From Marsupella aquatica (lineage: Eukaryota; Plantae; Marchantiophyta): a DNA stretch of 64,000 nt. The position numbers were made by a program, and so were the translations under genes. Positions 641-33,349 of the stretch are shown piece by piece. Position 1 is the stretch's first letter; each line of letters opens with the position of its first letter. The stretch is from assembly GCA_973895155.1 (NCBI GenBank), contig OZ316892.1, positions 16,482,357 to 16,546,356 of the forward strand, read 5' to 3'. Under the pieces are notes generated by a model. It ran no database searches. It worked only from the letters and a program-made list of their open reading frames with translations, and had not been told where the DNA came from.

Positions 641-1024
641 CAGCGCCTGGCGCTACCAAAAATTCCAGGATTTACAAGGTTAGAATTCAGTCACACACCA
701 GACTAGCGCCAGGCGCTAGCATTATAGTGGACCCCAATAAGTCTACTTTTTTGTATCTAAACATGCAATATCGTCCAAATTTAAGCACCATTCATGGATA
801 TATGTACTAGCGTCGGGCGCTAGTATTGGTACACCATATGTAAGGACCAAATGTGAACGAAATTAAACTTCCTACGTCCGAAAGTACTTCATTTTCAAAA
901 ACTTTCACATAAACTGGGACCAAAAACATAATCGTGAATAGACCATGGAATGGGTAGCGCCTGGCGCTATCCATTGAACACATTAAACTTTATGACCAAT
1001 CTTTTTACTAGCACCGGGCGCTAG
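641..1024. repeat. Cluster of five palindromes (T)AGCGC-NNN-GCGCT(A) in the divergent intergenic region
   Basis: 641 CAGCGCctgGCGCTA; 703 CTAGCGCcagGCGCTAG; 805 TACTAGCGTcggGCGCTAGTA; 955 TAGCGCctgGCGCTA; 1008 CTAGCACcggGCGCTAG. Confidence 0.9.
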
Positions 1025-1255: not shown

Positions 1256-2080
1256 TTGTTAATTTGGTACAGAGATTCAGTACTCGATCGTGAGAATTGT
1301 AGTGTACGACCGTTCGTACAACACTCATCGCGGGAGATGATGGATGCAGTCCCCTCCTCGTTGAGGGGGTATAGTGTTGTTGGGGATTGTGATCGTGGCT
1401 ATTGCGAGTCTTCTGAGTCTTCATTTTCAGGTTCGGTGTATACATGTCGAGTGACGAGGTCAAGCGCATCGCTTGTTCCCATCTCAAGTAATTCGCTTCC
1501 GAAGCCGACGCAAAAAAAGATGGAGAATGTTGACACATTTGCAATCGGAGATGTCTCGTTCTCGGAGACCGACCTTATTTTGAAACATGTCATGTTCTTT
1601 GGGAAGGATTTCCAAGGGTTTAACAAGGAGCCTCCTAGGATTCCGCTGTGTCAGTTGGTGCATATGGAGGTCATCCGCACCTTGCAGAAAGATAGCTCCT
1701 CCATTGACAAGTTGAAAGACTCTTTTCGTAGTATGGGATACAATTCATCGATAGGAATGAGGTTTTATGTTCAGCCGACGGACGCTGAGGGTGTGACGCT
1801 CACTTGCACACAAGAAATTTATGATACTTGGGATCCAATATGGATATCCGAAAACAAAAAGTTCGAGGAAGAATGTGCGGCAGACCCCGATTTTCTCGTT
1901 CTAAAGGATAAGATGTTCTCAATTTTTGACGGGAACCATTGGTTGTACTCCTGGACGCTTGTCACTAAGGAGAATCCAAAAAACCCAAAATACCACCCGC
2001 GAGTGCTCTGTATTGTCTTCAACGGGGACAAGGGTTCATTGATTGAAATTGAAGCGGCGATGCACACCGTGAACCAATAA
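1256..2080 (+). pseudogene. Exon encoding a ParB/Sulfiredoxin-like N-terminal domain
   Basis: SSIDKLKDSFRSMGY...FSIFDGNHWLYSW matches the ParB/Srx pattern (L..Si...G ... hhDGNHRh.A). The W codon TGG (1940-1942) is one C>T change from CGG (Arg). The apparent splice donor at ~2077 has decayed (ATAAGT for GTAAGT). Confidence 0.7.
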
Positions 2081-2170
2081 GTTTGTCTTTATAGCATATC
2101 TTGGAGAGGAATTGTTTTACGAGCGCCCGACGCTGCTTAAATGTTTTTCTAATTGCTTTCTTTTCCTTCA

Positions 2171-3501
2171 GGCTTGGACAAGCCGTGGTCGAACCTTCAT
2201 GGATCCTTGACGCAGATCAAATCAAGAGGATTTTGATTCATGACCTAGAGTACTATAGTAAGCTCATTGACCCTGCGAATTATAAGAAGTTTGAGCAGAT
2301 CAGGCTGAAGATGCGAAAAGGATCCTGGTACACAAAGAAGATGCCTCAAGAGGCTCTTGTCTATATTCTATGTGAGAATAAGATTAAATCATATTCTAAG
2401 CAGTTCAAGCTTGACATGGAGTCCGTTGTAGCCCTAGGTACCCCTTGGTCGGCCAAGGAGGTTTCCACAAGGCATGCCGTAATGATGAAGGAGGCCACCA
2501 AGGAGTGGGCAGTGAAAACATCAAAAATCACTCCTTTGTTGAGTCCAGAATTTGAGGGCTTTCTGTCTACGTTTGCATAAATGTATGCTGTGACGGAGAG
2601 AAATAAGAGAGAGAAGAAACCTAATACCGTCTTGTGTACGATGGACCAAGCCAGGCTTTTTACTGCTGTTTCCGCACTCGACCCCAAGCTCAGGAATACT
2701 TTGCTTGTCGCCCATTGCAATCCAGAGCTCCGAAGACAATTCTTCCATCCAAACAGCGTCAATGATGATCCTGTAAAACAGTGGTGTCATACCTGGATTA
2801 CATGGAACAATGTAGAGAGGATTGCAGCGGGGATGTTACAGTGTGCTTTGAGAGAGGTCCAACAAATCATTCCCGAGAATCGCTTGCAAGCCTGGGCATG
2901 TGAATCTTTTGAAGCTCTCATTGATACAGTTACTAATGATTTCAAGAGATACGGAGACTCGATGAAGAGTAAGTTTTTTAATACAATGTGGCCTTTAAAG
3001 TATCCGGACAAAGAGGACTACTCTTTGAAGAACCACAAGCGAGCAAAAAGGTACCTCTACCGATTTTACATCCACATGGAAGTAACTAGACCTGATTACT
3101 TCTCGGCATATCCCGCTGCTTTTCAGAAGTGGGCAGTAATATCAGAAGGTGACAATTATCTGATTTGTACTCTATGTACCCCACGGAGGGAATTTTCCCA
3201 GCAAGACCTTTAAGTGAATGGGAGAGAATCCACTGTCCATGGTACCCAGACACGGACAGATGGGACTTGCCCTTTGATCACCGAGAAAAGGATGCTTTCC
3301 AAAGCTCTCTAAGTCCCAGATACCAGTCAATATTGTTTCTGACCAAAGCAGGGACTAGCGAACGATGTAGATAAGTCCACAACAGAATTGCAAATGAACT
3401 ATGAGACCACAGTTGTTCACGTTGACCGAAGCCAGAAGCCACGCGCAAAAGGGAAAGATGATACTGCTCTCCCAAGTGAATCAACAAGGTCCGAGAAAAG
3501 C
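2171..3501 (+). pseudogene. Middle exon of the ParB-MTase gene (probably helical, unknown domain)
   Basis: Acceptor TTTTCCTTCAG at 2171. ORFs 2101-2580 and 2581-3213 are in one frame, separated by a single TAA, and a frameshift follows near 3190. Donor GTAAGT at 3502. Confidence 0.6.
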
Positions 3502-4063
3502 GTAAGTATAATTTGTAGTTCTTTGGTTAGCGCCCGGCGCTGCTATGCCATTCAATATATGTTAGATTGCATTTGTCTCATTTGTTCCAGAAATATATAT
3601 ATTGGCTTCCATCTCTTTGAGAAAGTTTGGCCAGCGCCGTGCGTTAGTATACTTTGCATTTTCCATACGCTCAAAATATAACATCGGCTTCCATTTGAGT
3701 AGGGAGAAAGTCATACGCCATCGGCAGCGGCAATACAAAGATAGATGCCACCCCAGAGGCATCTTAAGCCAATACAGGGCCTCCATCTGACCCACTTACA
3801 CCCATCGAGAAAGGGAAGTCAATTGCTCTAGTAGATACGGTTAGTACTAGAAAGAAGCAAAAAAGTGCAATTGAAGGTGGATCCTCCTCCGCTCAAGAAA
3901 GTGCGACTGCAATGGGTGTTCAACGTGAAGTTGGTGACTTCAAAAACACTCTTTCAAGGCATTGCATGGTTGAGTCTAGCATCTCAGAATTCTATGACAC
4001 AACGTCAACAAAGAGGAGAAGCCTGAATGGGTAAATGGTGTAGAGAAATGGGCAAAGGACCTC

Positions 4064-4900
4064 ATGAAGTCGGGATATCGAGACAAGGGCATTGTCCATG
4101 GGGGGAAGGAAAGATCCTTTGGAGTACACGTAGGATTCATTTACCTTCCTACGGGTCTGAAACCATCGCTGCTAGACAGAAAAGTCCCGAAATGGAATAC
4201 CCCCGACCACACACTGGCAACATCATTCTTTCGTGGAATGGACCCATTATCAAATGACGGAATGCTAGCAGTTTTGCATAATGGGGAGTACGATCCTATG
4301 TCTCAGGTTATATCCGCATGTCAGGAATCGAAGAAGTTTCATTGCATCTCCACACACAATGTTGTTATGTCAGTTCCTATGTACACGCCGAAGACTGACC
4401 GACAGGTAAATTCCAAGTCGTGATCTCTGTTTTTTACACTCAAGAATGTGTATGAATGCATGGAATGACATATCATTCTTGGTTTATCACGCAAATATTC
4501 ACGCTCAGGCTAGACGTCTTCTGCCAAGTATCTCATAAAGGGAAAGTACCCAAGGACTCAAGGTTTAGACCTCTATCTGTTATAGAAGATCCCTCCATCA
4601 CTAATTTAATTGGGCTTCCCACTCTCAATATAGATCCAACACCTGAGATGGAATTTGCAGGGAATGCCCATTTGTCGGTAGGATTCATGCAGTCTGTGAT
4701 AGAGCTCATCACTCGGCCTTGGGATATTTTCATAGATTGGACAGTTGGTTTGGGTAGCTCTTTTGTAGCTGGAGACTATTCTGGGAGGTTTGTAATTGGA
4801 CTGGAGAATCGGAAGGATTTTGTTGAAACTGGTTCCAAGGTGTTCTTAAATCTACTCTCTTCTAAGGAAGTAGAAACCTTGCCTCCCCCAATTCAACCAC
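4064..4900 (+). pseudogene. Beta-class (N6_N4_Mtase-like) DNA amino-methyltransferase domain with divergent catalytic motifs
   Basis: Motif order is IV then X-I. VGFIYLPTG (4142-4153 is the DPPY-equivalent position) ...W... LSNDGMLAVLH, an intron at ~4406-4493, then FMQSVIELITRPWDIFIDWTVGLGSSFVAGDYSGRFVIGLE. The last block parallels the consensus LlerlI...t.pGD.VLDpF.GsGtt..aa...gR.fIGiE. Confidence 0.72.
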
Positions 4901-5144
4901 CGGAAAAAAAAGGGACAAGCTCCGGTCTGTACTTAATTTTGACTCCGATGATGAGTCAAGTGGGGGGACAGCAGATGAAGTGGACGGGGAGACAACTCAA
5001 GGGGGGGTAAGGAGCAATCTGCTGGAGAGAGTGATAGCGATGACTCTTCCGAGTAATGTTCTGAAACTCGTAAGCTTCTTTCTCTTTTCCAGCTCCTTCA
5101 TGCATTTTGTGCTATTGATTGTACCTTTCAATCAGTTGACTTAC

Positions 5145-5443
5145 TGTTAGGAATTGACTCTAGTTCCCGACATAGTTAGCTTGGCCTTACTAGGGTTAGT
5201 TTTAACCCTAGATTACATTAGGATAAGATCCGCTTAGTTTAGGCCCACTCATCTTGGCCCCCTTGGGGGTATAGGCTGGAGGGAGAGCACTCTCTCCCTC
5301 ATTCTTCACATGTACTCTCATTTGCTATGGAGCCTTCAGGAGCTTCTCCACTCGGGGTGTCTTGTCGGTGTAGCGTCTGATTGAGTGAGTCTCTCTCTCA
5401 TGTTTCCGCATTGCTGTCTAGTCCGGAGCTGACGGTTCTTACA
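5145..5443 (+). repeat. 5' LTR of the copia element
   Basis: TGTTAG...CTTACA, 299 bp. By eye it differs from the 3' LTR by 4 substitutions and 1 indel. Confidence 0.95.
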
Positions 5444-5445
5444 AG

Positions 5446-5457
5446 TGGTATCAGAGC
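5446..5457 (+). promoter_or_regulatory. Primer binding site (tRNA-iMet)
   Basis: TGGTATCAGAGC lies 2 nt after the 5' LTR. Confidence 0.95.
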
Positions 5458-7141
5458 CTCGTGTTTGTGGTTCGGTGGCCTGGGCAGTGGTGAGAGCGTT
5501 CGTTGTGTTGGATTGTGGTGGAAGATTGAATCATTGTCGACGGTTGCGTGATCGTTTCACTGGTCGTTTCGCGTTGAAGGTTTCGTGCTTGAATACGTGA
5601 CGGTTTCCTGATTGAAACTTCAGCTTGGAGTGTCGGATGTGTCTCTGTTCTTTGAAGTACTGTCAAAAGGACAGTCTAGCGATCTCGTATGGCACTACGT
5701 TTTGGTGAAGGTGTCACTGCTTTTCATCATTGGTGTCCCGAGTAATCTTGTAGATTGAGGTTGCTGTTTAGAGCTTGATGCTCTAGGTTATGGCTTGTAT
5801 ATGTTTCGACTTAATCTTGTGTGGGGCCAAAAAGTCTTGTTTTCTTTGTAAAAAGATCGTGCGTTGAGGGACCGGTGTTGCAATTTTTTTTCTTTTCATA
5901 TATTTTTGTTTGTGCCGCATCGCAACAGAATACGGCGGTGCTGACGGGTTTCTTTGCGTATGTGCAGAGAGAGGGGCGAAAGGGAGATTTTATTGCCCGG
6001 GCACGTTGCCCTATGCGCGCGAGTGAGCCAGGAGGGCTCGAAATACAAAGGACTGAAGGAGGAGCGGAGGAGAAAGTCGAGCCCCTGGCCCGAGGCCCTA
6101 TGAGGTACTAGAGCAGGGCCTTATGTTTGTGCAGGTACAGTCGTACCTGTAAGTACAGTTTTAAAGTGAGGGGAGGGGGAGTTCAAAGCTCCCTTCTCTT
6201 GGGAGCTTTAAGGGGGCCATTGCCCTATGCAGAAGCAATAGGAGGGGAAAGGGGAAGCGAGCATACTCCTTTCCTTAGGGAGCACTTATTAACAGGGGCA
6301 TGAGGCCCTATGCTTGTACTTTAAGTGAGGAGGGGGAGCATACGAGGCTCCTTTCACTTTGGAGCCTTTAATTAAGGCTTGCGTCAGGTGGGTGGCCAAG
6401 GACACAAAAGGTACTACTGTACCTACACAGTACAGATTTGGGAGGGGGTACGAGGGGGTATTATATATCCCTGTACTCTACCAGGTACAGCGTACACAAT
6501 AGGTGAACAAGGAGATGGGCCGGTGCGCGACCCTATGTGCGAGAGGATTTTTTTTTGAAAAGAAATTGAAGGCCGGGAGGACGATTGTAGTCTTTTCGTT
6601 CTTAATTTTTTTTGTAAAAGCCAAAGGGTTTTTACTTGTTTTCTTTTCTTTTCCTTCCGTGTTTGGATCTTTTCTTTTCCAATCGGATAGGTGTCGGCTC
6701 CACATTCTTTCTGCTGTACATTTCGACTGTACTTTGATTCCCTGGAAAAGATACTTTTCCAGAGAGCTGATTTTTGACTGAAATTTTCAATTTCGGCGGT
6801 CGTCGAGGCAGAATTTTTTTGCGACACTTTGCAAGGGGATACTCAAGGGAGTTGAGCACGGGCTAGTGAAATTGATTTGTGCGTTGCTATTGCGAAATTT
6901 TTTCGGGACCTAAGATACCTGACGGGGGTCAAAATAGCCATTTTGACCCCCCTCTAGTCCGGGTTGAATAAGTTTTTGCTGAAGAAGTTTTTTGCCGAAT
7001 TATTTTCAGATCTTGGCAGTGTACCTTGCAGGCTACGTGGCGGTGCATTCCATTTCCACTTTTGCCAACTTTCAATTTTTGGTGAATTTTTTGGTGGAGG
7101 TATTTCGGTTGTGTATTTCCTGTGTGTTTGTGGCAGCATCA

Positions 7142-10100
7142 ATGACTTCAAGAAAGCTTGCGACGCCAAAGTTTGAGGTGGAGAAGTTTGACGGGAAGGT
7201 TAGCTTTAGCCTCTGGACTCAGAAGGTGACCAATGTGTTGATCCAGCAGGGTCTTGAGAAGACCCTCACTAGAGTGAAACCCTCGAATCTAACAGATGAG
7301 GAGTGGGAGGACATGTCGGTGCAGGCGTGTAGCACAATTGAGTTGTTCTTGGCAAACAACATTCTCAAGAACGTGTTGGGGATGGATCAGAATGCCAAGA
7401 AGATCTGGGATATGCTTACTCAGCTATACCAGAGTACTTCGTTGACTACTCGCATTTATCACTTGGAGCGGCTATTCAGGATGAAGTTGAAGGATGGTGG
7501 CAACATGCGTGATCACCTCAGTCTCTTCGGTGAGATTGTGCACAAGGTGACCACGGCGGGAGACAAGTTGACCGATGAGTATCTTGCGATGCATTTGTTG
7601 ATGTTGCTTCCTCAGACCTATTCAACATTGGTGACGGTCATCACACATGACAAGTCTACGTTGAAGTTGGATGAGGTGAAGGCTACCATTCTTGCAGAAT
7701 GGGGCAAGCGACAACTTTTTGGCCGTGACAATGAGTCTGCTGCCTTAATGGTTAGAGGCAGATCGATGGAGCGTACTACGGATCAGTCTAGATCTAAATC
7801 ACATAGTAGATCTAAATCTAAGTCCCGTAGTAAGAAAGTTCAGTGTTGGCATTGCCATGAGAAGGGCCACACCAAGTGGAATTGTCCTTCTCTATCGAAG
7901 CAAAAGCGTCCTGCTTCCAATGGTGCGTCCTCATCGTCAGCTGGTATTGTGATTGCTGATAATGAGGATGCTGCTGAAGTGCTATGTATTGGTGCTGTGA
8001 ATTCTGTGTATGACAATAAATGGATGTTGGATTTGGGTTCCTCTTATCATGTGTGTCCAACGCAATCGTATTTTTCCACTTACCAACCTTGTACCGGTAC
8101 GGTGGAAATCGGAAATGGTGTCCGATGTGCGATTGTTGGCATGGGGACTATCAAATTCCGGATGTTTGATGGTGTTATGCGAGCATTGACGGGAGTCAAG
8201 CACATACCAGACATCTCTAAGAACTTGATTTCTCTTGGTGCTTTGGAAGCTGGTGGATCTCATTTCACTGCACGTGATGGTGCGCTCTTTGTCGTCAAAG
8301 ATGATGTATCTTTGATTAAGGCGCTACGGCAAAATAATTTGTACATCTTGGAAGGAGATGTCATTGCTCCTAGAGTGGAGCATGTGGATTCTGTGGTGGA
8401 ACGTTTGGATGCCAGGACAACATCTGCGGCAGAATCATCTTTGGCTGCTTCAATTGAAGCACCCTCAACATCTGGTCACACACAAGCCATAGATTTATGG
8501 CATGCACGGTTGGGGCACTTGAGTGGTAAAGGATTGGCAGCCTTGGCAAACAGAGCTTTGTTGCAAGGCGCTCAATCTGGTAAACTCTCTTTCTGTGAAG
8601 ATTGCATCTTCGGCAAGCAGAGGAGAGTGAGTTTCAGTTCTAGTTCATACCATTCTCATGAGATTCTAGAGTATGTACATTCAGATGTTTGGGGTCCAGC
8701 GCCGGAGCCGTCGTTGGGTGGAGCTAGATATTTTGTGACGTTTGTAGATGATTACTCTTGAATGTGTTGGCTGTACTACATGAAGGAGAAGTCTCAAGTC
8801 TTTGAGATGTTCAAGGAGTGGAAAGCCATGGTAGAGCTACAAACTGGGAAGGAGTTGAAGTGTGTTTGGTCCGATAACGGTGGCGAGTATAAGTCCAATG
8901 AGTTTGACCAATTTGGTCGGGACCTTGACCTCAAGCGTCATTACACTATACCGGAGACCCCGCAGCAGAATGGAGTTGCAGAACGGTTGAATCGGACATT
9001 ACTGGAGAAAGCACGCAGCATGCTATGTAACCCAACAACTTTTGGGCTGAATCTGTCAACCAAGCTGCATACGTCTATAATCTGTCACCGCATAGTAGTA
9101 AGTTGATGCAGACTCCATTTGAGTTGTGGTATAAGAGACCTGCTGATTACTCTAGACTGCGAGTTTTTGGTTGTGCTGCCTATGTTCACATTGAGCAGAC
9201 ACACAAGTCTAAGTTGGATCCCAAGTCTAAGAAATGTATTTTTTTAGGCTTTAGTCCTGGGCAGAAGGGCTATAAATTGTGGGATCCTGTCGATTGCAAG
9301 GTAGTTGTGAGCAGAAATGTTGTTTTTGACGAAGAATGGTTGTCAAGACCCCGGGATATTCAGGAGGAACAGGTGGAGGAACCCACTACGGTGGAGCTTG
9401 GTGGTGATGAGGAAGCTGCTGGTCCCTCTGGTAGAGGAGCAATTCCTCAACCAAGGCGCTCCACCAGGGCCAATTTTGGCCACCCCCCTGATAGATTTGG
9501 TTTTGCAGATCCTCATGTTCACGTTGTTGAACATGACGATGATCCCGGTGTTGTTTTGCTTACTGAAGATGGAGACCCCTCTAGCTATGAAGAAGCTATG
9601 GCCTCTCCAGAGAAGGATAAGTGGTTGGAGGCGATGTTGAAGGAGATGAATTCTTTGAAGAAGAATTCAACTTGGCGCTTAACTGACATGCCTCGTGGGA
9701 AAACACTGGTTCCGTGTAGATGGTTGTACAAGAAGAAGCAGGATGGCACTTACAAGGCTCGCCTTGTGGCCAAAGGGTACACCCAGAAGGAGGGCTTGGA
9801 CTACACGGAGATTTTCTCACCAGTTGTCAAACTCGCTACTATTCGTGTTTTACTTGCGATTGTGGCATTCTATGATCTTGAGTTAGATCAGATGGATGTA
9901 ATTACTGCTTTCCTGCATGGATTGCTTGATGTGGAGATTTATATGACTCAGCCTCCAGGTTTTATTGATGAGAAGACCAGACACTTGGTGTGTAAGCTCT
10001 TGCGCTCGTTATACGGATTGAAGCAGAGTCCCAGACAGTGGAATAAGCATTTTGATTCCTTCATGTTATCTCAGGGTTCACACGAAGTGAACATGATTGT

Positions 10101-11147
10101 TGTATTTACATGAAGGAGGTGGAGAATTACTCACGCTTTGGTTACATTGTGTTGGCATTGTACGTGGATGACATGTTGATCCTGGCTGAGAATAAGTCTG
10201 ATGTTGCCCATCTGAAAGCAATGTTGAGTAAGGAGTTTTCAATGAAGGACTTGGGTCATGCCAAGAAGATACTAGGGATGGAGATTCATCGTGACAGGGA
10301 GCAAAGGCAATTATGGTTGTCTTAGAGGCAGTATTTGGAGAAGGTACTTGCCAAGTATGGAATGGAGAATGCAAAACCAGTTGGTACTCCATTGGCCTCC
10401 CACTTTAAACTCTCAAAGAATGATTGCCCTTCTAGTGAGAGTGATAGACTGGCGATGAAACATGTTCCCTATGATAGTGTTGTGGGTAGTTTGATGTATG
10501 CAATGACATGCACTAGACCTGACATTGCCCACGCTGTTAGCATTTTGAGCAGATTTATGGCAAATCCTGGTAAGCTTCACTAGGAAGCAGTGAAGTGGGT
10601 TTTGCAGTATCTGAAAGGTACCTTAGATTGTGGGATCTTATTTGACAGTAAAGCAAACTCTACATTAGAGTTGGAAGGTTTTGTAGATTCAGATTATGCT
10701 GGTAACTTGGATAACAGAAAGTCTACTACAGGCTATGTGTTTATGTTGGGTGGAGGTTGTATCAGCTGGAAGTCGGCAACTCAATCTTGTGTTGCGTTGT
10801 CTACTACTGAGGGTGAGTACATGGCTGCATGTGAGGCAACCAAGGAGCTAATCTGGCTACGGAGATTGGTGAGTGATCTGGGTCTTTCACCTGAAAGACC
10901 AGTGCTGCTGTGCGACAGTCAAAGTGCTTTGCATCTGGCTAAGAACCCTGTGTTCCATGCCAGGACAAAGTACATTGATATTCGTTATCACTTCATCCGT
11001 GAGGTGATTGAGATGAAGCAGATGTTTCTAGAGAAGGTGGCTTCAGAGGAGAATGCGGCAGACATGCTTACCAAAGTTTTACCTACCAGTAGCTTTAGTC
11101 ATTGTGTGGATATTATTAATGTTAAGGCCAAACCAATGACTATGTAA
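7142..11147 (+). pseudogene. Copia gag-pol polyprotein with stops and frameshifts
   Basis: Zinc knuckle CWHCHEKGHTKWNC; protease WMLDLGSSYH; integrase LWHARLGH, HSDVWGP, SDNGGEY, QQNGVAER; RT YKARLVAKGY, LYGLKQS, LYVDDML; RNase H DSDYAG, CDSQSA, ADMLTK. Breaks at ~8761, ~9040, ~10075, ~10325 and ~10583. Confidence 0.96.
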
Positions 11148-11214
11148 ATATGTTACTTAGTTACATATTGTATATCACCTGACTCATTGTGTGAACTTGA
11201 GTCAAGGTGGAGAT

Positions 11215-11514
11215 TGTTAAGAATTGACTCTAGTTCCCGACATAGTTAGCTTGGCCTTACTAGGGTTAGTTTTAACCCTAGATTACATTAGGATAAGATC
11301 CGCTTAGTTTAGGCCCACTCATCTTGGCCCCCTTGGGGGGTATAGGCTGGAGGGAGAGCACTCTCTCCCTCATTCTTCACATGTACTCTCATTTGCCATG
11401 GAGCCTTCAGGAGTTTCTCCACTCGGGGTGTCTTGTCGGTGTAGCGTCTGATTGAGTGAGTCTCTCTCTCATGTTTCCGCATTGCTGTCTAGTCCGGAAC
11501 TGACGGTTCTTACA
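11215..11514 (+). repeat. 3' LTR of the copia element
   Basis: TGTTAA...CTTACA, 300 bp, preceded by the PPT AAGGTGGAGA (11204-11213). Confidence 0.95.
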
Positions 11515-11535
11515 CTTACTTGGTTATCTACCCAG

Positions 11536-11842
11536 GTCCAAATGGAATACCAGAAAGCGCTTCCAACTCAGAAGAAAAGATGCAGGTTTTGAAATGGATA
11601 CACCGGAGAAACCATTTGTTTTGCCATCTTATGCTGAGAACGCTGTGAGAAAGGAGGATAGTCAAAGGACTCTGTGCTGGGAAAACAAAGGTCTCCGCCT
11701 TCGAAGAGGAGTTGACAAAAAGTTTGTTAGAAACCCGTATGTAGACGACATTTCTAACAGCAAGTATGTCGATGATGAAGCAGTCTCTACCGACAGATCA
11801 CAAAGCTCTGAATCAAAATCTCAATCAGAAACCGATAATTGA
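11536..11842 (+). pseudogene. Probable last exon of the ParB-MTase gene (acidic, Ser-rich tail)
   Basis: Donor GTAAGC at 5070 and acceptor CCCAG at 11535 bracket the copia insertion. ORF 11594-11842 ends ...SKYVDDEAVSTDRSQSSESKSQSETDN*. Confidence 0.5.
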
Positions 11843-12285
11843 TGGATATTTTTTTCCATCTTTTACTAGCGTCGGGCGCTGTTATGAAAATACATGTATT
11901 TCATTCCATATGCTCATAATAAAATTCTAAAAACCACTTGTTGTCTTTAGTAGCGTCGGGCGCTGTTATCGAGATACATGTATTTCTTGTATAAAAGGTT
12001 TTAAATTGGTCTCGTCCTTTAGTAGCGCCAGGCGCTCCCCAAATGTGCACGTTTTTCCTCAAACCTTTAAATCATTATATTGTTCATGCGTTCTGTCGCC
12101 ATCCTATCGCCATTCGTATATCGTCGTTACATTATTTAGTCGGGTCTATTTCAAAATAATTGTGTCGCAATTGGACTGTTTAGGCAACGGTCCTCTGCCC
12201 GTTGAAGCTCACATGTTACGGGTCTCCACCGATCTCCGTCCTTTGGTAGTCACTATGTCACCCTTTTGTAGTCACTAGGTCGATA

Positions 12286-12420: not shown

Positions 12421-14288
12421 ATGGAGAGGAAGGAACCAATGTCGTTGGACGAGATGCTTGCCTTCTTCAGTCCTTCCCGAGTTTGACCGGTGGAGAGCCA
12501 CTTTAGCTCCTTAAAATCAGTTCGTGTCAACACTGAGACCGAGACATCAACTTTTCGGAACCGTAATTCTCTTCCTTACGATGAGGCAATTAGTACTGGG
12601 GAGAGAAATATTCCATGGACTGACGACCGACAGACTCCACGCAAATATGCGGATCAGTTCTCGTTTCATCAAGTCATTCCTGCTGATGGTCACTAGCCCA
12701 TTGAACGTCGGGTGCAAGAGCGGTTCAGGCATGTCGACTTCCTTGATGCAAATTTTCCAGGTGTCGTATAGTGCTAAGTATCAAAAGTGACTCTTCTCAC
12801 CTAAAACCAGGGTTTTGATCCCTTTAAGAACAGATTTCAGAATGAATTGTATAACTTTTATCACTCTGAGTGATTTAGAGTCTTGAGCTCTATGTTGACT
12901 TCACTTCTCAATAAAAAAAATCGAATAAACAAACAACAAAGTAACTGAACTTCTGATTTATGAATTAGAGAAGAAATGAGTAAGGATTTAGAGACTACAA
13001 GCTGCTACTGCCACTCCTTCAGAAAGGATTTGGGCTCAGTATAGACATGAAATCTATCTCATAATTCATCCATCTCACTCTTCAAAACACAAAGGTTAAT
13101 GATAATGGAATTCTCAATCTGATGAAGCAGAAGCTTTCTGATTGCAAATGAATGATATGATTTAAAATGCCGTCAACATGGTTTGACATCAGCGATACAC
13201 AATTCAGTCAAACTCTAAACCATATTCCAGAATCAAAGCAACAGTACTAACTACTCTGAGAATCAGAATTTACTTCTCATTTATCATTAACTATTCTTGA
13301 ATTGGCTAGCGAATCCCGACTCTGCAAGCAAGCCTAGCAGTGAATTCAATACGAGTTTCAGAAATCTGCAACTGAATTCAATCACCACAGGAATCTCTTG
13401 AATTCAATCTTAACTTCAATCAATATAGCTTTACTTCCATACAAAACACTCACAGCATGCCTTGTTACAATGGAAGGAGGAGCAAACTATTCAGAAGACT
13501 CAATTCTGAATACAGTATTAACTCTATTTCTCTCTACTTCAAATGAGCATTCTACTCTGTCTTATAAGTGCTGGAATCCTAAAATGGAGGAGATAAGAAC
13601 AGTCGTGCCTTTCCAAGCTTAAAACTAAACAAGGGAGAAGCACAGCATAAGTACTTCAACAAGGGTGGTAGAATACTACTTTACTAGTAATCTACTTCAA
13701 AAACTAAGTGTTGAGCGGACGCTGCTAGAAGCGTCGGGAGAATCTGGACGCTGCTAGAAGCGTCTTAAGTAAAACCAACGGACGCTGCTCACACTGCTCA
13801 CAGCGTCAATACTAGGGTGGACGCTGCTCACAGCGTCGTGTGTTGAAGCTGACGCTTTCCACAGCGTCGGTCGAAATCCTCATAGAGTCTTGGTGGCGGT
13901 CGGGCGCTGCCAAAAGCGTCATGAGGAGGTTGGACGCTTCCGCAGCATCTTGAGTAAAAGAAACGGGCGCTGGTCACAGCGTCGGGCAAAGTACACTAGG
14001 AATCGTCAGGAAAGCCGGAGATGTCAAATATTTCTATAAGTGTCCAGAACAAGTAAATGTTGGCCGGAAGGTGTCTAAAGTGTAAGTAAATCTTGTGATA
14101 TGCTAAAAATAAACAAGTTTCCAGAAAAAAATTGCAGGGACACCCATACCACACCAGGCCCCGGTCAAGCTCATGCTGAGCATCGAGTTCCCTCTTCCAA
14201 TTATATTCGGCTCAGGGGTTTAGGATTCAAGAGAAACTACAAGCAGGCGAGGGCGGGAGTCGATGATGACTATCAATCACAAAGCTAA
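12421..14288 (+). pseudogene. Small element-borne ORF of unknown function, split by a solo LTR
   Basis: Removing 12762-14158 joins ...IPADGH*PIERRVQERFRHVDFLDANFPG to PGQAHAEHRVPSSNYIRLRGLGFKRNYKQARAGVDDDYQSQS. This is colinear with the uninterrupted paralog at 21238-21452 (minus). Confidence 0.65.
12762..14153. mobile_element. Solo LTR (1392 bp)
   Basis: TGTCGTAT...ATACCACA ends; 5-bp TSD CCAGG (12757-12761 and 14154-14158). The empty site is visible in the paralog near 21361-21375. Confidence 0.88.
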
Positions 14289-16024
14289 AGGTGTTCCAAT
14301 CGCAGGCGCTTAGGTAATTTTGGAGTGAATCCCTATGGCGATTAGGTTTCTAGGCAGCGAGATTTAAGCTAGCACCGAGCGCTACTAAAGCTTGATGCTT
14401 TCTATCTCCTTTTTTCAGTACTGAATGTTTTGTTAGGATTTGGTAATCTGGGTAATATGTTTTTGCCCATTTTGATACTTAGGAAATGCTTTTTGGATCG
14501 ACCCATTTTCCTCTCCATGGCCTTACACATGGAAGGGCGGGATTTGTAGTTTTAAGCTAGCGTCGGGCGCTACTTATACTCATTGCTTTCCGTCGCCCAT
14601 GTAATCTTGGTGATATGTTTTCGCCCATTTTTTAAGTAAATGAATTTTGGATCAGGTCAATCTCCAATGTCTGGTTTTCCTCTCGATGGCGTTAGACATG
14701 GATTTCGGGATTTTGAGGTTTAAGCTAGCAACGAGATCCGGATATTGTTGTTGTATGACCCTGCCTCTGTTGATTTGAATTGCCTCATTTTCAGCCGCTC
14801 ATTGTCTTCTCGATTGAGGTTACGTAGATTTTTGTTGACTTTTTCCGTCTTCTATGAAACCCTACAACCTTTCCATTCGCTTCATTGATACCAGGTGGGT
14901 GCTGGTAATCATCGCAAATTTGGGTCGGTCTACCCGATGGGATATTTACTCTAGAATGAGACGGTTTTAATGAAAATGACTCAAATGGGCTTTAATTTTG
15001 ATTGTTTGTAATCCTTTTTTTGGTCCGATGTTTTCGGTTTTTACCTCCAATTCTCCTGGTAACAGTAACTGTTTCCCGTTACTATTTCTTGGTTCCTCTC
15101 TTTTGTAAATACCCCCACACATCTAGTGCACTCACAAAGTCTTTGGGGTGGACCACGAGGACCGATAACCTTGGGCTGAGGAGGAGGGGGTATATCGTCA
15201 TCGGAGGAGTACTCACTACTGGATAGTTCAAAGGAAGAGGACATATCCACTGCCACATTACATTGCATGTAGGGCATGATTAGGAAAAATTAGGCCATAA
15301 ACCAATTTTCCAAAAAATGAACTCAAAAAACAATTAGGTAGGTTTATACATGGGTTTTATTACCCTTTTATATTTGTTAGCATGAAACCCAAATTAAGGT
15401 GACTGTCATGCAAGAAAAAACCACATTATAACCTTTAGGAAAATTGTAATACCCTATGTCCTAAGTGAGGTTAGACAATTACCTGAATGAGACTCGGGCT
15501 CAACAGTGCCTATAGGTCACGTGGCTTTTGGAACATTCGCCACATCTAGAATAGTCCGAGGAAAATACTGGAAACAAAATGTACATTTGGATAGTAATTA
15601 GGAGCCATCAAGTTGTGGAATCTTAGACATTTACCCATATATATTATGGCACAACAAAGAAGGGCAAGCATAAAAAATCTGTACTAACACTAGTAGAAAC
15701 CGGGGCAATTTAGACCAAACCTTATAGGACTAAGGCCACTAAGTCCTTTTTTGCAACTTCAAATGACTCGAAACCATTGCACCGGTTCACATGAACACTA
15801 CAAAAGACTGTGAGTGCTTTTTGGTTTAGGATAAGACTATCAAAAGTTTCCATGTACCCTAGTTTGTGAAAGGGTGAACACTCTCGCACATGATGGTTGT
15901 AGGGTTTAGTTGTCAGCTTTAATTTGATAATGGGCATATGAGGGGTTTACGTCCCGCTATATTGAACACGTACAAACTCAGTAAATATCTAAATGCCCTA
16001 ATGTCTCATAATTATACTCCATAG

Positions 16025-17501: not shown

Positions 17502-18669
17502 TGGTAATGGTAATGGTAATGTATTATAAGCTCCGGGACCATGAAAGTCAAAGGAGCTGCCACAAAAAGTAAAGTACAATGCAATCAAAGAAAAGAGCAA
17601 CCAAAAGAGATTGCTCAGAAGAGGACAACTATGTCCTCAAAGAAACTATGGACCTAGAGATCCTTGAAAGATTTTCCAAACCTATTCTCCTTTCCCTATC
17701 CACCGCAAAGATATATCTTCCAAGTTGCTGAGGGGGCAGACCAAACAATGCATACAAATCTTTCACCAAGATTTGAGATGCCATCCTAACCCCCTCATAA
17801 AACTTGCAAGCAATGAATACATGATATTCATTCTCTATACTAGAGCTATCACATAGTTGACAAACCCTCTTTTTCCTGTCAATATCCTTCCATCTCCCTT
17901 GTTCTACTTCAAGGTGGTGTGAGCTTAGTCTATACTGAGCAATAAGTTGTCTAAGTTGTACTGAGATAGTGCTAGATAAGTATTCTTGTTCTCGATATTT
18001 CTTCATGGGGTTCACATCTCTCATGTAGTATTGCTGCCGTGGGCTAGGTTCATGCCAAAGTTTGTGCAAAGCTTTTTGCTCAAGTTTTGCTCTTAGCTTG
18101 GTTGGGTGTGTTGGCCATTCATGTTCAGGAAAATCCCAAGCATGGGCCCACTTGCACACATCTGCATACCACCCTTTAGCTGAAGATGAGCGCAAGGCAT
18201 GAAAAGGAAATCTGTTTTCTTCCAACTCTCTTACACGCATGATGTATTTGAGTGTGTGGAAGAGTGCCTCCACCTCCAAAGGAAACAAGCCTGCCTCTGC
18301 AAGTGTAAGTGTATATGGGGTTTGTGACTTGATCCCAAGCTCCATCTCAAGAAATAGCTTTTGCAGCCCCTCAATCTGTTGCCACCCAGATTTAGACACA
18401 CCTGCTCCCCAAATTGGTGCTCCATAAAGAATGACTGGTTTCACCAAAGCTCCAAAGAGATGTTTCCTTAACCTCCAAGTGTGTAGACCAGCTCTTTTGC
18501 ATTTGTTCATGAATGCATAAAAAGCTCTGTACCCATTGGCAGCCCTAGATTTTACACATGAGGCCCAACTCAAGTTTTGAGAGAACTCCACCCCAAGGTA
18601 TTTGTAGGTCCTCACAAATTCCACCAGATTCCCTTGGAAGTAGAGCTCTGGATTTTGTCGTGATTTTCT
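17502..18669 (-). mobile_element. 5'-truncated non-LTR retrotransposon (RTE-X-like, inferred)
   Basis: 9-bp TSD TGGGGATTT (17493-17501 and 18670-18678). The 3' tail is (CATTAC)3 on the minus strand. It contains ORF 17629-18624. Confidence 0.88.
17629..18624 (-). CDS. C-terminal part of LINE ORF2 (RT thumb plus CCHC finger), truncated
   Basis: YKYLGVEF, LVKPVILYGAPIWG, YRLSSHHLEVEQGRW, CQLC...ENEYHVFIAC. 331 codons with no stop. Confidence 0.88.
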   Translation of the reverse strand: MEFVRTYKYLGVEFSQNLSWASCVKSRAANGYRAFYAFMNKCKRAGLHTWRLRKHLFGALVKPVILYGAPIWGAGVSKSGWQQIEGLQKLFLEMELGIKSQTPYTLTLAEAGLFPLEVEALFHTLKYIMRVRELEENRFPFHALRSSSAKGWYADVCKWAHAWDFPEHEWPTHPTKLRAKLEQKALHKLWHEPSPRQQYYMRDVNPMKKYREQEYLSSTISVQLRQLIAQYRLSSHHLEVEQGRWKDIDRKKRVCQLCDSSSIENEYHVFIACKFYEGVRMASQILVKDLYALFGLPPQQLGRYIFAVDRERRIGLENLSRISRSIVSLRT

Positions 18670-20257
18670 TGGGGATTTCTGCTAAATTGCTCTGGCTTTC
18701 TTCTCAGAGGTAAGCTACTCCGGACTATCACTTAGCGAGTTGGTCGCGCTACTGGAAGTACTACCACTTTTACTATACCGCCAACCTCAGTGCTTTTTAT
18801 AGAATGCTTTGTTGTTCTTCTACTCGGCATGGCATCATCCTGATTGCCCGTCGCGTTGTGACCAGCAATGGAAAGCGTAGACTATCTCCCTTTGCTAGTC
18901 AAAAGGCTGCGAGGTCTGATTTATGTCTTGCTGGAGTTTTGTTCCTCTCTGTGCTTTGTTGTGTCAGCTTTGTTTGTTGTGATCTGTCTTACCCTATTGA
19001 GTACTAGTGAAGCACTCTGTGATCCGACTTCATTCCCTACAAATAAATGGACACGACACTGTCTTGCTGGAGTTTTGGTGGTCTAGCTCCGTGCTTTGTT
19101 TGCTGTGATCGGTCTTACCCTATTGACTACTAGTTTTGCACCCTGTGATTTTCTCTGTCTCTATCCTCTGCATTCAGCTTGCCGGTGGGTTTTGTTATGA
19201 TTTGATTGGGTGATTGTTTTGGAGTTGTAGCCGTGGTCAAACGCACATCTATTAAAAACAAGTTCATGGAGCTCAGGTTGCTGCTGTATATAAAGTGCAA
19301 CAGGATCTAGATCTGCTTGCAGTCCCAACAAATCATACATGCTACAATCACAGGATAGGACTTTAATAAGTCTTCATAGTTTCTCATTTTTGTAGAATCT
19401 AAGATGTTGCTGGCCCAGGAGATGAGTTTCCTTAAGAGTCAAGGACATTAGCAATGTGGGCCATGTAATACAGTTGAGAATGATGGCAAGTATAATTTGT
19501 TAATGGGTCCAATGCCATGTTTGTGAGCTATTGAGTTGGATAGGAGAAAATTACCAAAACATTGTCACAACTGCTTCCAGAACAATCATTCGTGGTTAGA
19601 CTAAGCTTGGCTGAACACCCCTTGCTTGCATGGGGCGGACACAATGCAAAATAGGTTGTCATGGAGTTGTCGAATGGATCTTCAATTTTCATGAGAAATG
19701 TCTTGGGTTTCCGTCCTATGTGTAGATTTCAGAATTAGAACGAAACTACTATTAAGAATACTGTACTTAGCGATTCTTCTTTTCCTGTGAAGACATTGCC
19801 GCAAATGTTTCCTTGAGTTCCTGTCATACCAGTGTTTCCCATGCCATTTTCAGCAACTACTGACGGAGTTGGCATCGTAAGTTTAAATGTATAGCTCTCA
19901 TTACTTCAATCCAAAATTCTATGTAAAAAGACATGCTAGCCTTTGTGCTTAATTGCTATGTAGCATCTGACTGCTTAAGTTGCACTACTTAAATACGTCA
20001 GACGGGGAGACAAGAGGGAGCGAGTTGTTGATTTGCGCCTTACATGACACCGCCCAACATTCACCTGCTACAAGGACTCATCTTGGTGCGCTTTGAGAAT
20101 CTCCGTGTTGCAAGGTGAGAGTTGTCGTGAGGTGATCATCTCCAGCGTAGTATGGGCTTGGGATTTATATATATGATTCCTGCTTCCAGCAGATAGGCAA
20201 TTTCTTCCAAGCTCTTTGGTGCAGACGTCTTTGTGGAATGCAATGCCCTGTATGCCA

Positions 20258-21452: not shown

Positions 21453-22483
21453 TGTGGTGCGTCCCATGGCTCCCTGAACCCAAGAAACCCCCTTGCACAA
21501 GCCGATTCCAGCAGGTTTCGTTCTTGGCGAGGCCGGTTTTGCAGCTTAGCGGCATGGGACGCTGCTAACTTTGACTAACATTTTACACACATATACTGGA
21601 CAGATCCTTCATCGGGTCATGAGATGTGAAGCCGACCTCTTCTATGCCTTCCATTGTCCTCCCCTCCTGGTCTCCCTTTAGGTATGTTTGGATTCCGCCG
21701 CCGGAATGATCCCCAACTGGCTTGGGTAAGCCGCTAAGACCTCTCTTAGCTCAACACATCCAACTCTTACTACCTTGCTTACTCCCTTTTTGGTTGATGT
21801 GGGCAATCTTCAAACAAGTTAATGCGACACACAAATAGCAAAATGACTCCTTCTGACTGAGTTATACCATGCACTTGCCATACAAACAATACTTCTCATA
21901 CACAAGATCTGCGAACTAAGTCGTGAGGCCAACTCTATTCATCTCTTAAGTATGAGGAAACATGAATATACACACGGGTCACAGCATAACTAACCGAGAG
22001 CTTCTTTAACTACTTGATCCTAGCCCGGCTGGTGCACTAAAAAATTGCTAAGGAAGAAGGCCCTGAACCCCCCCGCTGCCCAGGTACTTATCCTGGCAGT
22101 GGATCCACCCAATTTCTTGCAGCGTAAGCCAAATCTAACCTGACCGTAATCTACCTATGTACAGTGAGGCAGGAGCACAAGTGTTGCTCTTACCAGTGGA
22201 TCCGCAATCCCACTAAGCTAAGTGTCAGGGCCGCCTCCTGGTCCTGATCCTAATTCTAAACTTGGAGATCTGAGCCCGCCCTGCCCACTCACGCCTCCTC
22301 CCTCCATGTCCGCCCTCCTTAAAAGGAGCGGCCCTCCACCACCGTCATGGTAGTGGTGGTTGATCCTCAATGGACGCCCCCAACACTTCCTCCGCAGCCA
22401 CTGTCGTAGGTCCGTCCTCTGACAGATTACCTACTCCGGACCGAGTCAACTCTCCATCGGCCTGACTAGGTCCACCCTCGGCT
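21453..22483. mobile_element. Left fragment of LTR family A
   Basis: Starts TGTGGTGCGTCCCATGGCTCCC and is colinear with 59869-~60905. It is truncated at a junction with copia gag. Confidence 0.88.
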
Positions 22484-25400
22484 TTGGCTCCTCCACTCAA
22501 AACCCAATATATGAACGAGGTCAACCCACGCCTACTATGGGATAAATTAAAATCAAGATTCGACCATATGTGCGAAGTCTGGCTCCCAGAAGCCCGTCGT
22601 GATTGGTATAACCTGCGAGTGATGGACTACACATCAATAGCCAGCTACAACAGTGCATTATTTAGAATCACATCCCAATTGGAGTTGTGTGGCCATCCGG
22701 TCCCTGATGCAGATATGATCGACAAAACACTAAGCACATTCCCAGAAGCAAATATAGCCCTTGGTACACAGTACAGAAATATGAGATTTACAGTCTACTC
22801 AGACCTCATTGCACATTTACTGGTAGAAGAGAAGCAACAGACCGTTGCCCTGCAGAACGCTAGAAAACGACCTGCAGGATCAGCCCCACCACCACAAAAA
22901 CCAGAAACAAATTATAATATGAGAAACCAAAGGGGACGAGGCAGATCAAGAGGCAGAGGCGGATATCAAGACAGAAGCAGGAATCAAAATCCCAGAGGCC
23001 GAGGAAACCATTTTTCATACAACTCACGGGGTCGAGGAGCAAGCGGCCGAGACAGCAGACGAAACACCCCACCTGATAACATCAGAGAAGATAGGCTGTG
23101 TTACCGGTGTGGTAAAATAGGACACATAACGAAGAACTGTTGGGCATCAGATCAAGCAGCTAAACGACATACAGAAGCAAGGGCCCAATTAAAGCAAAAT
23201 CCAGAAGGCAACTATATGGAGATGGAGGAAGACTTAGCTAACTATCAGGACCCGGAAGAAACACCTACACAACAACCTGAAGAACAGGAGACCCATATGG
23301 TAACACCAGCATCAATACATACCTCATTAGATGACCCCAACCTTGGGATAATTGACAGCGGAACATCACATACAATTCTTAAAGACAAGAAGTACTTCCA
23401 CAGTATCACCTGGCTACACGATCAATGACCACAATTTCGGGTATAAACCAGATAGAAGAAGGTAAGGGAGCCGCAACAGTGACATTCCCACAAGGAACAG
23501 TTATTGATATTGATGCAGCAATCTTTGCCCCACGAGCTACTCGAAATTTGATAAGCTTTCGGGACGTAGTCGCTAATAAATACCAACTGCAAACGGCAAA
23601 GACAGATGAAGAGGACACACTACAAATTTTGGAGATTACCAATGATGGAACCAATATTAAAGAGACATTACCACTCATACCCCCCGGTCTCTATGCGACT
23701 CAAATTACTGTAAATTATTCTACAACTGAATCATCAGAAATAACACACCTATGGCACTACCGACTGGGACACCCAGGAGTAAATATGTACCGGAGAATTA
23801 TCAAGGACTCCAGAGGAATCCCACAAGGAGTCAACCCATCCACAATGAAACAACAATGCTTAGCCTGTTCTCAGGGGAAGCTGATTACAAGACCACCAAT
23901 ACCGAAGATGATCCATGCTATCCCGAATTTTTTGGAACACCTGAACGCAGATGTATGTGGGCCAATACACCCACCCAGTGGACCGTTTAAGTACTTCCTG
24001 GCCATAATTGACTCATCGACTAAATGGTTACAAGTATCCCTCCTTTCTAGTCGAAACTTAGTCTTTGCACGAATCTTAGCCAATATATTAAAACTTAAAG
24101 CACAGTTCCCAGAAAATCCAATCCGGAAACTGAGTGGATGGAGCAGGGGAATTTACCTCCAAAGCATTCGATGATTTCTACTGGACGGCGGGAATTGACA
24201 TAGAATACTCAGTTCCCTACGTCCATTTTCAAAATGGAATTGCCAAATCCGTTATAAAGTGTATCCAAATGATTACTCGACCACTCCTACTGAACTCCAA
24301 GTTACCCCTCTCCACATGGGGACATGCAGTCCTCCACGCCACCACATTGCTGAAGTACAGGCCCTCAGCGTTTAATACCAAAACTCCACACCACTTAGCG
24401 TTTGGATTACCCCCTGACCTGTCACATCTGCGCGTCTTTGGATGCAAAGTGATGGTCCCCATCCTTGGGCCAAAGCGCACTAAAATAGGACCTCAAAGAC
24501 AGGAAGGCATCTACGTTGGCTACGACTCCTCATCCATAATCCGTTACCTGGAACCAACCACTGCAGACCTATTTAAAGCCAAATACGCAGACTATCACTT
24601 CTATGAAGATTCATTCCCCCAGTTACTTACAAAAAAATCATTGACGAGGGATACACCTCCACAAAGCATAAATTGGAACAGTCGAAACTTACTCAACCAG
24701 GACCCGCAAACGAAGCGAGCGGATGAGGAAGTCCGCAGACTACTACACCTCCAAGAAATGTTGGACAAGATCCCCGACGCCTTTAATGATGCAGCCAACG
24801 TTACAAGATCCCATGTAGAGGCAGCAAACATACCAGCTCGAGTACAACCTGCCACAAAATCAGCAATGGAGACCACGGCAAAGAAAAAAAGAGGTAGGCC
24901 ACCAGAATCTAGAGACTCCCGACCACGCCAGAGACTCCCTCATCAGGTACTACCTGAAACCATGATGCATGCTATTACTAATGAACCAGATAGATCTAAC
25001 GTACCAGAGAATGAAGAAATGGCCATCCCATACCAATACATCGGACAAATCTATAAAAGACCCAACACTGTCGTTGATGCACAATTCGCCTATCACATAG
25101 CTCAGCAAATATCAACTGACACTCCGGACCCCCTAACCATTAAAGAAGCACAAGCAAGGTCGGATTGGCCACAGTGGCAAGAGGCCATTAACACTGAAAT
25201 GGATGCATTGATCCGTAGGCATGTCTTTGGCCCGTTAAAACAAGTCCAACCTAACAATGATTACATAGACAGCAGATTCACATTTGTCAGAAAGAGAAAT
25301 GCCAAAGGAGATGTCATTAGATACCGCGCACGCTTAGTAGCGAAAGGCTACACTCAAATCTCGGGAAGGGATTATGATATGACCTATTCACCTGTTATGG

Positions 25401-26910
25401 ATGTGACTACATTCAGGTATCTTATAGCTTTCTCTCGAAAACACCAACTCTGTAATATACTAATGGACGTTGTAACAGCGTACCTATATGGAGTACTAGA
25501 CTCCGAAATTTTCATGAAAGCCCCAAAAGAACTACTCGCAAAGTGACAGAACATGTCCAAGGGAAACATTTCCAGAACTTGAGTAAGGACATGAAGTCGG
25601 GAATACGACAGATTGTACCAGATGAGAAGCTCAAAGGCCTAGTGTTGAGCAGTGGCAACACAAATAAAGATCCACTCCAGCACCCCAGAAAAAGTGGGAC
25701 TGGACAGCAGGCGTTTGCTGTGCAAGTCCTGAAATCCATCAACGGGTTAAAACAAAGTGGACGCATCTGGTACCAGAAGTTTAAAACTGAGATGCAAACC
25801 CTTGGATTTATCAACAACGATATCGCACCGTGCATATTCATCAAACACATCGATACAGAATTCGTCATCCTTGCCCTATACGTCGATGATGTCAACTTAT
25901 TTGGTACTCCACAACTCTTACGCAAAACTATTAATACAATGAAGAGTATTTTCGAGATGAAAGAAATTGGAGAGCCGACATACTGCTTAGGACTACAATT
26001 TGAATACCTGCAAACTAGCACATTTATTAGTCAATCAACCTATACCAAGAAGATCATTCGACAATTTCATATGCACAATGCATATCCTGTGTCCACACCC
26101 ATGGAGATGCGGTCATTGGACACAGCTAAGGACATGTTCAGGCGACGACAGGAGAATGAACCAGCCCTTGACTCGGATAAGCCATACCTATCAGCCATTG
26201 GCGCCCTTCTCTACCTGGCAAACAATACAAGACCGGATATCTCCTTTGCAGTAAGCTTACTGGCACGACACAGTGCACATCCAACTATTCGGCATTGGAA
26301 CGGCGTGAAAAGGGTATTCCACTACCTTCAAGGCTCAATAGATATGGGCCTTTTCTTCCCAAACGACAACCCAGATGAACTCATCGGTTATGCAGATGCG
26401 GGGTACCTCTCTGACCCACAGGACTCGAAGTCACAGACTGGCTATGTTTTCCTGCAAGGAAGAACTGCCATATCCTGGAGGAGTATGAAACAGAGCATGA
26501 CCACAACCTCCTCGAATCACGCAGAAGTCATCTCTCTCTATGAAGCATGTCGTGAGGCGATATGGCTCCGCAGTATTATCAACTATATCCTGAAACAAAC
26601 AGGCAAAACGATATTGACCAAACCAACAATTATTTACGAAGACAATAAAGCATGCGTCGACCAAATTGTTGCAGGCTACATGAAGACAGATCGGACCAAA
26701 CATATTGATCCAAAATTCTTTTTTACGCACAAACAGAGTGGAAACCAGATCCAGGTGAAGTGGATCCGTTCACAAGACAATTGCGCCGATCTTTTTACGA
26801 AGCCCTTACCTACGGGACCCCATCGACAGCACGTTACCGCCATCGGAATGTGTCGACTCTCTACCCTGCTTTCCCCCACTGCCGACGCACCCCACCAAGC
26901 AGATGCTTGA
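22484..26910 (+). pseudogene. Ty1/copia (Bianca-lineage) gag-pol, 5'-truncated and decayed
   Basis: CYRCGKIGHITKNC, IIDSGTSH, LWHYRLGHPG, ADVCGPIHPPSGPFKYF, YRARLVAKGY, LYVDDVNL, SSNHAE, IYEDN, HIDPKFFFTH. SSNHAE and KFFFTH are typical of Bianca RNase H. Confidence 0.92.
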
Positions 26911-32812: not shown

Positions 32813-32821
32813 CTACTAGTG
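32813..32821 (-). mobile_element. Possible CACTA terminus upstream of the TnpA-like gene
   Basis: CTACTAGTG reads CACTAGTAG on the minus strand. A partner end and TSD are not established. Confidence 0.4.
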
Positions 32822-33104
32822 TTACAATTGCTACTTTATCAGAAGTTGTAGGAATGACTTTCACAAATATCCCCCAAAAATCAGTTGATAAAATGTAACA
32901 ACAATGACTCCCCTAAACTTGGAGTCATGTATTTTTGAAAGTCTCCCTAAAGTCACAAAGCATAGGGTCTCAAAAGGGGACGTTTTCTTCTAGTGGGAAG
33001 AGAGTGATCAAGAAGATTTTGGAAGAAAAGAAAAAAGTGACAAGATCCTTGAGGATAGAGTTACCAAGTGTCTTCAGGCTGTCCTTTCAAAAGAAGGAGA
33101 GTTT

Positions 33105-33345
33105 TTGGGTAAGGATGTGACTAGGTACTTGAGGGCTTATTGGAAGCAAGTTGAGGTCTTCAAGATTGACCAGGCAACAGCTGTGTTAGAATTTTCTACC
33201 CTTGTTGAGCCAGAACTGAAAAACACAGTTGCAAACCTAGCTGTAGGTCTTGAGGAGGAGGATGAGTGGACTGGTTTTGTTAAGAGGATGAAACATCGTT
33301 TCTTGATGTCTGATAGTGAGAGGATGAGAGAAGCAACTTTCCTTG
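33105..33345 (+). pseudogene. Ty3/gypsy gag fragment
   Basis: GKDVTRYLRAY...FSTLVEPELK...WTGFVKRMKHRFLMSDSERMREATFLD resembles the N-terminus of non-seed-plant gypsy gag. It is mirrored at 39175-39415. Confidence 0.55.
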
Positions 33346-33349
33346 ATTG

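Follow-up and report, generated by a model that had tools for sequence, protein, structure and literature searches.

Organization of the Gene

The window analyzed here, a 64,000-nucleotide stretch of the Marsupella aquatica genome, holds a degraded copy of an intron-containing plant gene that occurs in many copies and in which a predicted ParB/Srx fold is joined to a bacterial-type DNA methyltransferase domain without the usual catalytic motif. The gene has five exons on the plus strand (1337-11842; Table 1) and is colinear with models of 1,000-1,200 amino acids from the liverwort Riccia sorocarpa. Gene models from the fern Adiantum are colinear too, but shorter than those of Riccia. In tblastn searches, the Riccia model P0153 (1207 amino acids) yields colinear segments at 1622-2074, 2176-3132, 3168-3251, and 4492-4908, and P0021 adds an extra one at 4076-4390. 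With a profile made from 18 Riccia models, the fifth and last exon is found at 11549-11818, beyond a copia insertion (E 4.7e-06). The initial annotation had confined the gene to 1256-4900. These limits enclose the ParB and methyltransferase motifs but not the last exon. Also overlooked were the inserted copia element, the near-palindromes, and the algal precedent in the literature (see below). The three motifs on which it was built, DGNHW, YLPTG, and DWTVGLG, do lie where it had placed them.

Table 1. Features of the gene and its immediate surroundings, in window coordinates.
Feature	Position	Strand	Description
Five TAGCGCCNGGCGCTA-type near-palindromes	641..1023		Upstream of gene; candidate parS-like sites
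Exon 1	1337..2076	+	Low-complexity N-terminus, then ParB/Srx-fold domain (about 1607-2074); frame open; DGNHW 1928-1942
Intron 1	2077..2171	+	Phase 2; donor mutated in window copy; one degenerate palindrome at 2121
Exon 2	2172..3501	+	Conserved middle region; stop 2578-2580; frame breaks near 3140, 3301, 3343
Intron 2	3502..3702	+	Acceptor 3590 or 3702; palindrome at 3528
Exon 3	3703..4405	+	Linker, then methyltransferase N-half (4070-4405); YLPTG motif IV 4142-4156; frame break near 4004
Intron 3	4406..4494	+	Acceptor mutated in window copy
Exon 4	4495..5069	+	Methyltransferase C-half; SAM-binding motif I DWTVGLG 4735-4755; acidic motif II residue; frame break near 4904
Intron 4	5070..11535	+	Hosts copia insertion
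Copia LTR retrotransposon	5145..11514	+	In intron 4; not part of gene
Exon 5	11536..11842	+	Acidic C-terminal tail matching Riccia C-termini
Three palindromes	11867..12037		Just 3' of stop codon

The introns are real, because GTAAG immediately follows the ParB exon in all five metagenome loci, 53 of the 78 alignment rows reaching the end of the ParB domain stop within two amino acids of it, and diverged copies lack the window sequence exactly at the intron positions (2083-2169 and 4411-4491). In the window copy, intron 1 starts with AT and intron 3 ends with AA. Gene models and colinearity also argue for a ParB-methyltransferase fusion within one spliced gene, in agreement with the initial proposal: the Riccia segments are colinear, and both domains occur in single models from Riccia (P0153, P0021, P0155, and P0192) and from ferns (P0116, P0145, and P0196). 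Where the Riccia annotation separates the halves, seven pairs of consecutive locus tags have the ParB half under one tag and the methyltransferase half under the other.

The window copy itself is dead and is ordinary transposon debris. Its reading frame is interrupted by a stop and by several frame breaks, and two of its splice sites are mutated. Intron 4 has received a copia element whose LTRs are identical in 295 of 301 columns and which is bordered by a 5-bp target duplication. Retroelement remnants (copia gag-pol and a LINE-like frame) fill much of the window, at 6983-11147, 17629-18681, 22466-26910, and 63400-64000.

The Predicted ParB/Srx Domain

The window's own ParB domain can be modeled with high confidence (pLDDT 91.9), and the case for a predicted ParB/Srx fold lies in the unanimity of the list of structural matches. 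In the VIA structure comparison, run on 48,161 chains, all 11 rows at Z>=2 are ParB/Srx-superfamily proteins. The matches include KorB, PadC, sulfiredoxin, ParB, SerK, SbnI, Spo0J, Atu1540, SspE, and BrxU, which we take to form one superfamily. The best is KorB, with a Z of 7.2 that stays below 8 (rmsd 2.7, 92 aligned), and the top Foldseek rows (Noc, KorB, ParB, and Srx) agree, all at E >0.001. The first reading of this domain as ParB/Srx-like therefore stands. The model shares its predicted fold and a GxxR-type motif with the ParB/Sulfiredoxin superfamily (KorB, ParB, Noc, PadC, Srx, SerK, and DUF262), and differs in a helical insert of about 35 residues and in having no ParA. A DNA-binding helix-turn-helix, if present, would be expected in the middle region of the protein.

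The Pfam check suggested earlier gives no ParB match in 115 rows at E<=0.05, with the sole exception of one DndB match (0.028), and leaves the methyltransferase under its cut-off. The ParB sequence profile meets just two weak, unrelated matches in the PDB. With the 186-aa ParB exon, HMMER matches 200 proteins at E<=0.001; a word-based protein search finds none among 363 candidates and is insensitive, as the HMMER result indicates. The pattern [DE]GNHR is found in 96 of 150 matches. In the ParB alignment, conservation is high at G138 (101/110), N139 (108/110), and H140 (101/110), as well as at R53 (83/98) and N185 (75/88). An alignment of the kind called for in the initial annotation shows that DGNHR is conserved, and the GxxR nucleotide-binding motif is a feature of the family. 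Since R141 is kept in 88 of 108 rows, the DGNHW of the window is probably a decayed DGNHR, and its Trp would fit CpG decay.

The nearest ESM Atlas clusters to window positions 1520-2077 (score 0.95; 185 and 178 of 256 features) are made of Ascomycota proteins, with DUF3723 present in 31% and 47% of their members, and the next cluster is cnidarian. DUF3723 is described as a conserved gene of Starship elements (10.1101/2021.12.13.472469). The N-terminal part of these fungal proteins may thus be of the ParB/Srx type; the DUF3723 model matched 0 of the 115 rows, and our literature search found nothing linking DUF3723 to ParB.

The Methyltransferase Domain and its Motif IV

Model comparisons support a beta-class amino-methyltransferase fold for the C-terminal domain, with motif IV placed before motif I, which upholds the permuted architecture first proposed. 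The Riccia model of this domain is poor (pLDDT 47), yet Foldseek matches it to CcrM at E 2.3e-05. With the same weak model, VIA places beta-class or MT-A70-type enzymes in all of its top eight rows, and M.MboIIA is matched at Z 6.9 (rmsd 4.6, 144 aligned); N4CMT is one of many tied structural matches and is not singled out. The domain also matches phrog_3008 at E down to 4e-09. Fold, permuted motif order, and the GxG SAM loop are those of beta-class enzymes (M.CcrMI, M.BceJIV, M.MboIIA, M1.HpyAVI, and the phage DIPY type; PF01555). The differences are a motif IV that reads YLPT, DLP[TS], or DxPF, and Pfam scores of 13.7-26.2 bits, all under the 26.7 cut-off. From fold and profile likeness, a prokaryotic origin may be inferred. 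Phage tblastn returned 15 records at E 0.03-1, with matches confined to the motif I region, and an annotated ParB gene lies within 2.5 kb in none of the five phage loci examined. Pfam rows such as TRAPP and Anthrax_toxA (E 0.03-0.17) were rejected as chance.

YLPTG is assigned to the motif IV position because global hhalign against four phage enzymes places Riccia LYLDLPTG on phage VIADIPYN and continues through motif I (220 columns, probability 92.8), and because the Riccia profile matches this segment of the window (probability 94). The motif is YLPT in the window lineage, DLP[TS], DMP[TS], or DIPT in Riccia, and DIPY in the phages, while two of the three fern rows covering the site have a near-canonical DxPF (DVPF and DLPF). 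The canonical (D/N/S)-P-P-(Y/F/W) occurs in neither the window lineage nor Riccia, and in alignments A1 and A3 both SPPY and DPPY are lacking from every plant row that covers the site. This absence rests on A1 and A3, as our motif pattern was derived from the observed variants and is blind to DPPY. Among the 25 plant rows caught by that pattern, the Asp of motif IV is always kept. In motif I (FxGxG), the GxG and the following acidic Glu are retained, and the aromatic position is altered.

Variation within the window lineage was followed on a 246-bp methyltransferase stretch. Among the 40 variants listed (of 41 with a frequency >=15%, the only ones in the table), 32 are synonymous versus 24% expected, 31 fall on third positions (p 1e-08), and none affects the Tyr codon of YLPTG. 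Copy-specific decay of YLPTG was rejected, as no frequent variant of this codon occurs across the contigs, and the motif looks like the selected state of the lineage. The initial annotation had left decay and a dead fold as alternatives for the odd motifs; both apply, with DGNHW looking like decay and YLPTG like a selected state. The series from phage DIPY through fern DxPF and Riccia DLPT/S to the YLPT of the window indicates a motif IV that erodes stepwise under selection.

The main rival reading holds that methyl transfer persists in the intact protein through a remodeled active site, so that it would mark its own element (4mC/6mA) or act on another substrate. Within the domain, conservation is highest in the SAM-binding half, the Asp of motif IV persists in the plant rows just mentioned, and two of the three fern rows with motif IV keep an aromatic fourth residue like that of phage DIPY. 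Purifying selection acts on the domain in the window lineage, and own-element marking has been proposed for the algal genes. Against this, the window lineage has Tyr for Asp and Thr for the aromatic residue, Riccia rows have Thr or Ser at the fourth position, and N4CMT activity is reported to be abolished when the first and fourth residues of motif IV, the same two positions, are replaced (PMC8885841). We therefore regard an active enzyme as unlikely. As the domain is under selection after the loss of both key residues, a pseudo-enzyme is favored in the window lineage, whose protein is likely to be catalytically dead; fern enzymes may be active. Judging from these sequence patterns, DNA methyl transfer has probably been lost in the window lineage, with the SAM pocket and fold kept for binding DNA or a base.

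The initial annotation had also drawn an analogy with Marchantia MpDN4MT1 and rotifer N4CMT. These likewise bring a bacterial-type beta-class fold into a eukaryote, but they are described as active, low-copy host genes carrying (T)SPPY and no ParB domain. A comparable 4mC activity of the window gene is not supported.

Copy Number, Palindromes, and Probable Transposon Context

The family is dispersed, multi-copy, and often degenerate. The 246-bp stretch is found at 80-100% identity on 38, 60, 46, and 84 contigs in four runs from two studies, one of which may have supplied the window itself. All 26 methyltransferase matches come from Riccia, on 8 scaffolds, with many models truncated or split, and the suspicion that the gene is repeat-borne is thereby borne out. 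When 30 ParB matches were looked up, the named ones were hypothetical proteins of Riccia sorocarpa, Adiantum nelumboides, and A. capillus-veneris. A quick IQ-TREE tree (111 rows with >=110 profile columns, no outgroup), which shows diversity only, separates at least three distant ParB lineages within Riccia.

The 15-bp near-palindrome TAGCGCCNGGCGCTA has 15 matches in the window at <=2 mismatches, versus 0.02 expected from shuffling. Ten near-palindromes lie at the gene locus: five upstream, one each in introns 1 and 2, and three downstream, with none in the exons and none in copia. The intron 1 palindrome was recovered only with a looser pattern, and no palindrome was found in the five short metagenome loci. 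The same palindrome also occurs around other degenerate genes at 12.4-15.2, 20.2-21.5, and 44.5-47 kb, which may belong to related elements, so that another protein could be the palindrome binder. Whether these palindromes are the binding sites of the gene's own intact protein is a nearly balanced matter; we predict it tentatively.

That the gene is carried by a DNA transposon is likely, and the putative element extends past the left end of the window. A different view would make it a host gene family or an endogenous virus-like remnant, passively amplified and not a transposon accessory. No transposase, terminal repeat, or target duplication tied to the gene was found within the 64-kb window, and the position of intron 1 is conserved across very distant copies, as in host genes. 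However, the Riccia models are often truncated or split and are scattered over their scaffolds, several distant lineages live together in that genome, no relative was found in viral contigs (0 of 125 candidate stretches), and the published relatives by architecture are located in transposons; such an origin thus seems quite improbable. Weaker still is the view that the ParB and methyltransferase parts are two separate neighboring genes: several Riccia annotations split the halves, but single two-domain models exist and the region between the domains is conserved and colinear, which makes this highly implausible.

On the minus strand, an open frame (409-1) starts head-to-head with the gene and continues off the window. 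By likeness to the algal element Sola1-1_Ec32, it is a candidate transposase start. Neither this frame nor those at 12421-15250 and 44552-46632 matches a Pfam or NCBIfam family. The gene at 44552-46632 is degenerate and spliced. Its non-coding parts contain the palindrome described above, and a SWIM-like motif (CxC...CxH) is located toward its end; positions 45076-45543 have an ESM Atlas score of 0.78, which is uninformative. It presumably resembles Mutator- or Zisupton-type transposases. Two diverged copies of another palindrome-bearing gene (12421-15250, plus strand; 21500-20200, minus strand) are 72-86% identical in blastn pieces, and both are interrupted by an insertion. CACTA-type ends lie in opposite orientation at 15688 and 48018, each bordered by TAA; they could bound one nested 32-kb CACTA element, or be due to chance. 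An inverted duplication of about 4 kb (29640-33643 versus 38877-42878, 100% complementary) is either very recent or an assembly artefact.

Comparison with Known Systems

The closest precedent is the Ectocarpus element Sola1-1_Ec32, whose 1104-aa accessory gene combines a ParB-like domain with an N4C/N6A methyltransferase and runs in the opposite direction to the transposase gene; its authors proposed a class of accessory proteins, each binding and modifying the transposon that encodes it (PMC12477816). The window gene is likened to it by architecture: both domains are in one protein, the length is similar (1039-1207 aa in Riccia), the gene is repeat-borne, and the frame at 409 is head-to-head with it. 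The differences are the host, an alga versus a land plant, and the enzyme, predicted to be active there, whereas motif IV is eroded here.

In the red alga Bostrychia, Plavaka elements are reported to carry PAG2 (N6_N4_Mtase+SET), PAG3 (ParB-like+2OG oxygenase), and inverted-repeat arrays (10.1101/2025.02.11.637652). As in the window gene, the ParB-like domain of PAG3 is missed by Pfam, and the adjoining arrays are its proposed binding sites. ParB and methylase, however, are in separate Plavaka genes with other partner domains, whereas they are fused here, and the Plavaka repeats are arrayed, while the window palindromes are dispersed, introns included. The same source tabulates the elements carrying PAG-type genes (its Table 6) and names VANDAL as the sole demonstrated case of transposon genes that both bind their own element and modify it. 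Chlorophytes and chytrids are listed with ParB-HTH-Dam fusions, phages with ParB+DAM genes, and DIRS1 elements with inactive methyltransferase domains in PMC4738411, the accessible text of which has no land-plant clade of the window-gene type. Our literature search, mostly without subscription papers or the Bostrychia supplements, found no land-plant version of the ParB+methyltransferase gene. The kind of gene is thus known, and what is new is the host group, land plants, together with the selected loss of a catalytic motif.

A Model for the Intact Element

Taken as a whole, the feature is reasonably likely to be a dead copy of a DNA-transposon accessory gene. By prediction, the intact protein would recognize the 15-bp palindromes of the element that encodes it, through a ParB/Srx-fold nucleotide-binding domain together with a methyltransferase fold that is likely non-catalytic. 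The protein would most likely be supplied in trans by an intact element. It would then bind the palindromes, perhaps with nucleotide-gated loading, while the inactive methyltransferase fold may contribute DNA or base binding. Once bound, the protein might shield the element from silencing or organize its ends. A more doubtful suggestion is that nucleotide-gated loading on the palindromes guards the element against silencing by the host or assists in joining its ends. A bolder and rather improbable extension is that land-plant transposons carry a ParB/parS-like system, with a nucleotide-gated sliding clamp on element-wide palindromes and a pseudo-methyltransferase acting as a reader or as a shield against silencing. 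The family would then span from a probably active fern enzyme to a selected dead one, and would have its ParB-like domain in common with Starship DUF3723.

Few transposons have genes for binding and modifying their own DNA. With the present gene, the range of the ParB+methyltransferase accessory class comes to include liverworts and ferns, and a candidate binding site is supplied. The natural motif IV series (DxPF, DLPT, and YLPT) makes the self-marking function proposed for this class directly testable.
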